64,000 nucleotides of DNA from Escherichia coli. GTDB taxonomy: Bacteria > Pseudomonadota > Gammaproteobacteria > Enterobacterales > Enterobacteriaceae. The notes beneath the pieces are model-generated. The model had not been told where the DNA came from and did no database searches. It worked only from the letters and a program-made list of their open reading frames with translations. The stretch lies in NCBI RefSeq assembly GCF_030013205.1, contig NZ_CP122648.1. One strand, given 5' to 3'. Below are positions 41,641 through 42,251 of this stretch, piece by piece (the stretch's first letter is position 1; every line of letters begins with the position of its first letter). A program made the position numbers and the translations under genes.

Positions 41641-41978
41641 TTACACATTTATAAGCGTTATAAATGGGTGGAACCTGTAAAGACTTCTACTCATTTATAT
41701 TCTTTGTCGCCTCTAAAAAACCTCCATTTTGCCCATCCTGGACTAATCATTATCATTTTCTACAAATTCTGTGGCGTTAATTTTTCGTTGGAGTGAAAAT
41801 TATTACGTCGGAGTTTGGTGGATTTTAGTCGGTATAGAATTACTTTAAATATTTGGCTTTTCAATCAATGAATTAAGTGCTCTTTAACATAATGGATGTG
41901 TTGTTTGTGTGTTTCTGTTAAGTTGGTAGATTGTGACTGACTTAAAAAATCAATAATTAATAATAGGTTATGTTTAGT
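41641..41978 (+). promoter_or_regulatory. AT-rich CRISPR leader
   Basis: Strongly AT-rich tract directly 5' of the first perfect repeat; the degenerate repeat is at the opposite end of the array. Confidence 0.6.
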
Positions 41979-42251
41979 GAGTTCCCCGCGCCAGCGGGGA
42001 TAAACCGCCCGGTTGATTTATTACCCTGGCTAGCATGGGGAGTTCCCCGCGCCAGCGGGGATAAACCGGCCACTAACCAGCCAGACTCACAATAAATGCA
42101 GAGTTCCCCGCGCCAGCGGGGATAAACCGGTGCACACGTTGTATTTGTGCTGCCTATGCCAGAGTTCCCCGCGCCAGCGGGGATAAACCGCGTTTAGCTC
42201 CGCAATGCTGGATATCACTGATGAGTTCCCCGCGTCAGCGGGGATAAACCA
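41979..42251 (+). CRISPR. type I-E CRISPR array, 5 repeats and 4 spacers
   Basis: 29-bp repeat GAGTTCCCCGCGCCAGCGGGGATAAACCG at 41979, 42040, 42101, 42162; terminal variant GAGTTCCCCGCGTCAGCGGGGATAAACCA at 42223; four 32-bp spacers at 42008-42039, 42069-42100, 42130-42161, 42191-42222. Confidence 0.95.

Follow-up and report, generated by a model that had tools for sequence, protein, structure and literature searches.

The CRISPR-II locus and its genomic surroundings

In the chromosomal type I-E system of Escherichia coli, the organization is split, and the cas genes adjoin only the array on the iap side (PMC3903273, PMC10910852). The second locus, CRISPR-II, is located between ygcE and ygcF and comprises either one array or two, CRISPR2.2 and CRISPR2.3, which lie 0.5 kb apart; leaders belong to CRISPR2.1 and CRISPR2.3 (PMC3903273, PMC3737337, PMC10910852).

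The window, i.e., the whole stretch of 64,000 nucleotides analysed here, contains the two-array form of CRISPR-II. The feature under study consists of a leader (41641-41978, plus strand) and a repeat array (41979-42251, plus strand), and it is identified with high confidence as CRISPR2.3 with its leader, the cas-distal array of the chromosomal type I-E system. The locus is already known and ordinary. It was found in 5,422 of the 5,426 complete E. coli genomes, and the queE-ygcE intergenic region of the window and its counterpart in K-12 MG1655 can be aligned over their whole length. According to the open reading frames and the annotation of the matching RefSeq record (see below), the upstream flank is queE (ygcF; 40969-41640, plus strand) and the downstream flank is ygcE (42890-44368, minus strand). 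The array is thus placed between ygcE and ygcF (queE), about 20 kb from CRISPR-I and with no adjacent cas gene. All testable defining features of a type I-E array and of the CRISPR-II locus were found. On the other side of queE (39803-40830), the matching RefSeq record lists ygcG as a pseudogene (internal stop) and gives a frameshift for a small gene beside it, which corresponds to K-12 yqcG.

The flanking genes, the orientation, and the repeat are the same as in the CRISPR-II locus of K-12 and BL21 (CRISPR2, the ygcE-ygcF array). Compared with K-12, the leader is approximately 93% identical, and the terminal repeat and everything downstream of it are near-identical. The differences concern the spacers, of which there are four here and six in CRISPR2.3 of K-12 with none in common, and the first nucleotides of the repeats, which are GAG in the window but mostly GTG in CRISPR2.3 of K-12 and BL21.

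The main array is followed by an AT-rich stretch (42252-42705, without strand assignment), which is conserved in K-12, and by a relic of CRISPR2.2 (42706-42844, plus strand), which consists of three degenerate repeats and has no leader. The repeats at 42706-42734, 42755-42783, and 42816-42844 agree with the consensus at 19, 24, and 22 of 29 positions, respectively, and are separated by one interval of 20 nt and one of 32 nt. Measured to the first well-preserved of these repeats, the gap (42252-42754) is 503 bp long with a GC content of 27%, which corresponds to the separator of "0.5 kb" reported between the two arrays of CRISPR-II (PMC3903273, PMC10910852). The relic is nearly base-for-base the same in K-12, and the repeat hairpin still folds in two of its three repeats. 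Two open reading frames running over the relic repeats (42755-42988 and 42816-43022) were taken as mechanical ORFs and not as genes.

The 2.1 kb around the array match the genome of E. coli ETEC4079 (pig ETEC, isolated from pig faeces in Belgium; NZ_CP122643.1) at 100%. Over the whole window, a single base differs from this record: position 60362, in codon 356 of cas3, is C in the window and T in ETEC4079, a synonymous difference (ACC/ACT). The window thus derives from ETEC4079 or from a nearly identical strain. In ETEC4079, RefSeq annotates a CRISPR at exactly the bases of the array, with queE and ygcE as its flanks. The gene order downstream of the array in the record is yqcE, ygcW, ygcU, ygcS, ygcR, ygcQ, ygcP, ygcO, ygcN, queD, cysJIH, a hok-family gene, cas3, casA, and casB; past the end of the window follow cas7e, cas5e, cas6e, cas1e, cas2e, a second array with seven repeats, and iap. 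The genome therefore possesses a complete cas3-casABCDE-cas1-cas2 operon with all eight cas-E genes. The part of it located in the window covers an intact cas3 (59295-61994, plus strand, 899 aa; NCBIfam models cas3_core and cas3_HD above cut-off), cse1/casA (62092-63654, plus strand, 520 aa; TIGR02547, 607 bits), and the N-terminal part of cse2/casB (63651-64000, plus strand; TIGR02548, 60.6 bits), which is cut by the window end and complete in the matching record.

The distance between the last repeat and the start of cas3 amounts to 17,043 bp. The placement given in an earlier note on this sequence, between queE and ygcE and about 17 kb from the cas genes with the ygc genes and cysJIH in between, is therefore accurate. 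The nearest cas genes are cas3 and cse1/casA, as that note had described, and the separation agrees with the published split layout (PMC3903273, PMC10910852). Its further claim is that the array relies on distant Cascade, Cas1, and Cas2 genes, and it had named the lack of a complete cas operon beyond the window as a refutation of any functional claim; this operon is present in the ETEC4079 record together with the second array. What the note had missed are the relic CRISPR2.2, the type of the cas genes, and the spacer targets, for which it had declared inspection by eye insufficient.

Since some E. coli strains carry the locus without cas-E genes (PMC3903273, PMC3737337), the array might be considered an orphan without cognate cas genes, as in BL21 or in strains of phylogroup B2, or else a part of an I-F system. 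For the present array this is extremely improbable. It is refuted by the type I-E genes cas3, casA, and casB within the window and by the full operon of eight cas-E genes in the matching record; moreover, the repeat is a type 2 (I-E) repeat and not an I-F repeat.

The cas genes appear to represent the majority non-K-12 cas-E variant, designated E1 (PMC3903273) or cas-EO (PMC3737337). Three observations point to this assignment, which is made by comparison with K-12. First, Cas3 and CasA encoded in the window are only 29% and 21% identical, respectively, to the K-12 proteins. Second, a hok-family toxin gene (hok/gef, type I; 58948-59100, plus strand) is annotated between cysH and cas3 in the matching RefSeq record, at a position where only the sokX sRNA is annotated in K-12; hok/sok is reported beside cas3 for all arrangements except that with the K-12-type cas variant (PMC3903273). 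Third, the repeats of the cas-adjacent array of ETEC4079 begin with GTG.

A precedent for an array located apart from its machinery may be provided by BL21. The BL21 array at 1002908-1003730 of NC_012947.1 occupies the same queE-ygcE locus and falls inside the interval 1002800-1003800, which is cited for the leader-directed guide RNA in BL21-AI (PMC5224486). BL21 derivatives have neither cas genes nor the CRISPR2.1 leader (PMC3737337). Therefore, acquisition assays in BL21-AI with plasmid-supplied Cas1-Cas2 most likely score the cas-distal queE-ygcE array. If so, they constitute direct experimental precedent for an array that is served in trans.

Repeats, leader, and the expected crRNA pathway

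The array contains five repeats of 29 nt on the plus strand. Four of them are exact copies of GAGTTCCCCGCGCCAGCGGGGATAAACCG (repeats 1 to 4; 41979-42007, 42040-42068, 42101-42129, and 42162-42190), whereas the terminal repeat 5 (42223-42251) is degenerate and differs at two positions, C13T, which falls in the hairpin loop, and G29A. Consecutive repeats start exactly 61 bp apart and enclose four mutually unrelated spacers of 32 nt each. The repeat is the E. coli type I-E (type 2) repeat, and its four exact copies are identical to the repeats of CRISPR2.1 in K-12. As RNA, it is predicted to form a GC-rich hairpin of 7 bp followed by the 3' tail AUAAACCG (-15.1 kcal/mol, z = -3.6); the hairpin fold is kept in the terminal repeat despite both exchanges. 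Searches of the locus against Rfam, using gathering thresholds as well as E-values, returned no CRISPR repeat family and only matches at chance level.

That the repeats arose by chance, represent a tandem repeat of another kind (e.g., a REP/BIME element), or are an assembly artefact has next to no probability. The five matches to GAGTTCCCCGCGCCAGCGGGGATAAACCG in the window are opposed by none in 100 shuffled sequences, the period is exact, no spacer occurs twice, and for two spacers there are matching phage sequences with a PAM. Together with the near-universal occurrence of the locus in complete E. coli genomes, these findings refute such an explanation.

The leader 2.3 (41641-41978, plus strand) extends over 338 bp from the stop codon of queE to the first repeat and is AT-rich, with a GC content of 31% compared to 51% for the whole window. 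Over the last 60 to 100 nt, it shares 92-93% identity with its counterparts at this locus in K-12 and BL21. It is thus conserved whatever the cas variant, since K-12 has K-12-type cas genes and BL21 has none (PMC3737337). With these data, the anatomy proposed in the earlier note (a type I-E array of five repeats and four 32-bp spacers with an AT-rich leader and a degenerate terminal repeat) is borne out, and the coordinates 41641-42251 given there delimit the leader and the array exactly.

The elements expected of a type I-E leader, an IHF region and a conserved upstream motif beside the first repeat, could be assigned from the sequence. For I-E leaders, an IHF region at -9 to -35, a conserved upstream block, and an integrase anchoring site at -53 to -50 have been described (PMC5224486). 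The conserved motif AAGTTGGTAGATTGTG (41920-41935, plus strand; -59 to -44 from the first repeat) spans the position of the anchoring site (-53 to -50, GTAG; positions according to PMC5224486). A predicted IHF-like site, AATCAATAATTAA (41948-41960, plus strand; -31 to -19), has one mismatch to the consensus WATCAANNNNTTR and falls within the experimentally defined IHF region of PMC5224486. A simple scan of the leader for sigma-70 promoters gave five sites, compared to 5.6 expected, and promoter and terminator scans together yielded nothing above the shuffled expectation; no promoter position is therefore claimed.

CRISPR-I (CRISPR2.1) shares with the array the repeat family, the 61-bp period, and the leader motif GTTGGTAGATTGT, a core that is found in the cas-adjacent leaders of both ETEC4079 and K-12. 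In contrast to the array studied here, CRISPR-I adjoins cas2 and iap and falls beyond the window. It has a short leader of about 96 nt, whose identity over the last 60 nt is only about 60%. In ETEC4079, CRISPR-I (37953-38347 of the retrieved segment L001) consists of GTG-type repeats and six different spacers.

In the type I-E family, the leader would drive transcription of the array into a pre-crRNA. Cas6e (CasE), whose gene is about 21 kb distant, would cleave the repeats on the 3' side of the base of the 7-bp hairpin and release crRNAs of 61 nt, each with an 8-nt handle at the 5' end (AUAAACCG) and a hairpin handle of 21 nt at the 3' end. Cascade loaded with such crRNAs would find protospacers flanked by AWG and recruit Cas3, which would lead to DNA degradation. 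New spacers would be inserted at the leader-repeat junction by Cas1-Cas2, with IHF bending the leader. We infer transcription, processing, interference, and current adaptation in the strain from the family. The sequence prerequisites of each step are present, namely the repeats with their hairpin, the leader elements, the cas genes, and two spacers that match phages next to a PAM.

The I-E system of K-12 is silenced by H-NS (PMC10910852); low activity is therefore the default expectation. Because of this silencing and because the array has changed only by deletion within its lineage (see below), it is probably competent but mostly quiet.

In ETEC4079, the repeats of the cas-distal array are of the GAG type and those of the cas-adjacent array of the GTG type, and this distribution is reversed in K-12, which has the other cas variant. 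If this reciprocity were general, the Cas1-Cas2 or Cascade variant might use the two arrays differently, e.g., by biased adaptation or crRNA loading, which we consider very unlikely. In such a case, ATG PAMs would mark acquisitions by non-K-12 machinery into a repeat of the "foreign type." The pattern could also be a record of the module exchange that has already been proposed for CRISPR-I.

Spacer targets and protospacer-adjacent motifs

The search of the spacers against phages and plasmids that had been suggested in the earlier note revealed targets for spacers 1 and 2, but not for spacers 3 and 4. Spacer 2 (GCCACTAACCAGCCAGACTCACAATAAATGCA; 42069-42100, plus strand) matches the phages P1, P7, phiW39, SJ46, and vB_EcoM-813R1 at 32 of 32 positions and RCS47 and its relatives at 29 of 32. 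The P1 protospacer extends over the final codons of coi into the beginning of the operator Oc1ab, upstream of c1, and is preceded on its 5' side by the three bases ATG. Sixty-six IMG/VR contigs match this spacer, all of them (66/66) with an ATG PAM. About 340 PLSDB records, mostly plasmids of about 54-150 kb, match at an identity of at least 99%, and at several of these sites a C1 repressor inactivator is annotated.

For spacer 1 (CCCGGTTGATTTATTACCCTGGCTAGCATGGG; 42008-42039, plus strand), no exact match was obtained in the phage, PLSDB plasmid, or IMG/VR searches. A weak match (24/25) was located in a gene for "phage tail protein I" in prophages of five E. coli genomes, and in the prophage of E24377A the full spacer corresponds to this gene at 27 of 32 positions with an ATG PAM. 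When the spacer is read in the frame of the tail-protein gene, most of the mismatches turn out to be synonymous, with ATG as the upstream triplet. Since the 24/25 match suggested a coding origin, the search was repeated with a codon-degenerate pattern, which was found in 37 IMG/VR contigs. The best of these, a prophage contig of 41 kb, matches at 30 of 32 positions with an ATG PAM, and the two mismatches are at the PAM-distal positions 25 and 28. The target gene on this contig encodes a tail protein (PHROG 48, E = 7e-65) and is bordered by genes for a baseplate protein and a tail-fibre protein on either side. With Escherichia myoviruses of the vB_EcoM-720R5 group, the segment shares approximately 82% identity.

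Judged from these matches, two of the four spacers trace to temperate coliphages, one to the immunity region of P1/P7 and the other to a myovirus prophage of the E. coli type, in which its source is a tail gene. Earlier contact with P1-like phage-plasmids and with a myovirus prophage that has a P2-gpI-type tail gene is thereby recorded in the array. In a published survey of E. coli spacers, P1, RCS47, and SJ46 were the most often targeted known phages (PMC10910852).

Spacer 3 (GTGCACACGTTGTATTTGTGCTGCCTATGCCA; 42130-42161, plus strand) yielded no target in INPHARED phages, PLSDB plasmids, IMG/VR, metagenome contigs, or genome contigs. Likewise, spacer 4 (CGTTTAGCTCCGCAATGCTGGATATCACTGAT; 42191-42222, plus strand), the oldest or anchor spacer, yielded none in INPHARED phages, PLSDB plasmids, or IMG/VR; the IMG/VR searches for both spacers were run with every sixth position wild-carded. 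The sole PLSDB match for spacers 3 and 4 was a mislabelled chromosome of 4.9 Mb that carries the array itself. The 11 metagenome matches of spacer 4 were all CRISPR arrays and not targets.

For both spacers with targets, the AWG PAM is located on the strand that is identical to the spacer. For the non-K-12 cas-E variant, CWT has been reported as the acquisition motif, which reads AAG or ATG on the strand of the spacer; K-12 Cas1-Cas2 uses CTT only, and ATG (CAT in the notation of the other strand) was not observed with it (PMC3737337). The ATG PAM of both traceable spacers fits the cas variant present here, with the published preference concerning acquisition, not interference.

The host genome was searched for self-targets, which the earlier note had also proposed. 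In the chromosome of ETEC4079, no site outside the array was found for any of the four spacers at E-values up to 10. The plasmids unnamed1 (77 kb, IncFII, conjugative), unnamed3 (36.5 kb), and unnamed4 (58.6 kb, with F18, AIDA, and hemolysin genes) as well as the first 50 kb of unnamed2 contained no spacer match with up to eight mismatches, and no P1-like plasmid was present among the plasmid sequence scanned. Plasmid unnamed2 (NZ_CP122645.1) is an IncHI-type plasmid of 217 kb, 50 kb of which were covered by the scan. This multiresistance plasmid also carries an annotated gene for a Shedu immune nuclease (5267-6067 of the retrieved segment L125), an unrelated second defence element.

Array history among pig-associated strains

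The comparison of spacer content with other strains, a further suggestion of the earlier note, identified the array as a four-spacer deletion form of a six-spacer array from pig strains. Pigs are the source of all 14 other complete genomes with the order s1-s5-s9-s2-s3-s4 (K_EC180, O139:H1 strains W13-16 and P15-25, EC556/571/581, and several Belgian ETEC); strains in the range ETEC4067-4071 and ETEC6333/6334 are among the carriers. This order was read directly in K_EC180 and deduced for the other 13 genomes from identical match spans and identities. The window, with s1-s2-s3-s4, agrees with the six-spacer arrays in spacers 1, 2, 3, and 4, in their order, in the terminal repeat, and in the flanks, but it is devoid of s5 and s9 between spacers 1 and 2 (two units, 122 bp). 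Two relatives show other orders, ETEC4068 with s1-s5-s9-s2-s4 and CFSAN018748 with s1-s5-s4. The four-spacer form was detected only in ETEC4079 among the 5,426 complete genomes.

The individual spacers differ in their distribution. Spacer 1 occurs in 18 genomes, 15 of which also have spacer 3, and spacer 3 is confined to the arrays of about 20 pig-associated E. coli genomes. Roughly 300 E. coli genomes have arrays with a version of spacer 4 that differs in 1 nt. The unrelated strains ST2747, Ec-2939, and strain 222 have only the terminal spacer, or its 1-nt variant, in common with the window. According to the literature, it is the leader-distal spacers that strains have in common, and CRISPR-II tracks the clonal frame (PMC3903273); the sharing seen here fits both observations.

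The leader-proximal and the terminal spacer are common to all orders given above. Therefore, the sequences are explained most simply by an ancestor with six spacers, from which internal units were lost independently by deletion between repeats. In the five arrays that were read out (the window and four retrieved ones), spacer 1 is leader-proximal throughout, and the differences are internal deletions only. No sign of recent spacer acquisition was seen in the lineage, as judged from these five arrays and the 18 genomes with spacer 1.

This history raises the question of whether the array is a genuine but dormant fossil, which was built by an ancestor, is no longer usefully transcribed or extended, erodes by deletion between repeats, and confers no present-day immunity. 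The relation to the six-spacer array of the 14 pig strains, from which the window array differs by the loss of two internal units, the other internal deletions in the two further relatives, and the same leader-proximal spacer in all arrays read out are what would be expected of such a fossil. The sharing of the oldest spacer by hundreds of genomes and the H-NS repression of the K-12 system (PMC10910852) point in the same direction. However, none of the four non-terminal repeats deviates from GAGTTCCCCGCGCCAGCGGGGATAAACCG, the motifs of the leader are conserved, neither cas3 nor casA is disrupted, and a full operon exists in the matching genome. In addition, the leader-proximal spacer still matches a prophage at 30 of 32 positions with a PAM, and because the scanned sequence of the strain contains no P1-like plasmid, nothing contradicts interference. 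Weighing both sides, we regard the fossil as possible but rather unlikely, and the array is treated here as a probably competent, mostly quiet part of the system.

The four-spacer pattern, as a strain-specific deletion derivative of the six-spacer array of pig-associated ETEC and O139 strains, is usable as a typing marker. Beyond annotation and typing, the array is of little consequence; it is a textbook component of the I-E system in E. coli.

Two observations concern array ends and spacer length in other arrays. In three contigs from gut metagenomes (L127, L133, and L136), E. coli arrays continue beyond spacer 4 with a repeat whose last base is G and with sequence unlike the downstream flank in the window. 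Spacer 4 may thus be non-terminal in these lineages, and the terminal repeat of the window may be the mark of an old truncation point. In the CRISPR2.3 array of E. coli ST2747, one spacer is 31 nt long instead of 32 nt.
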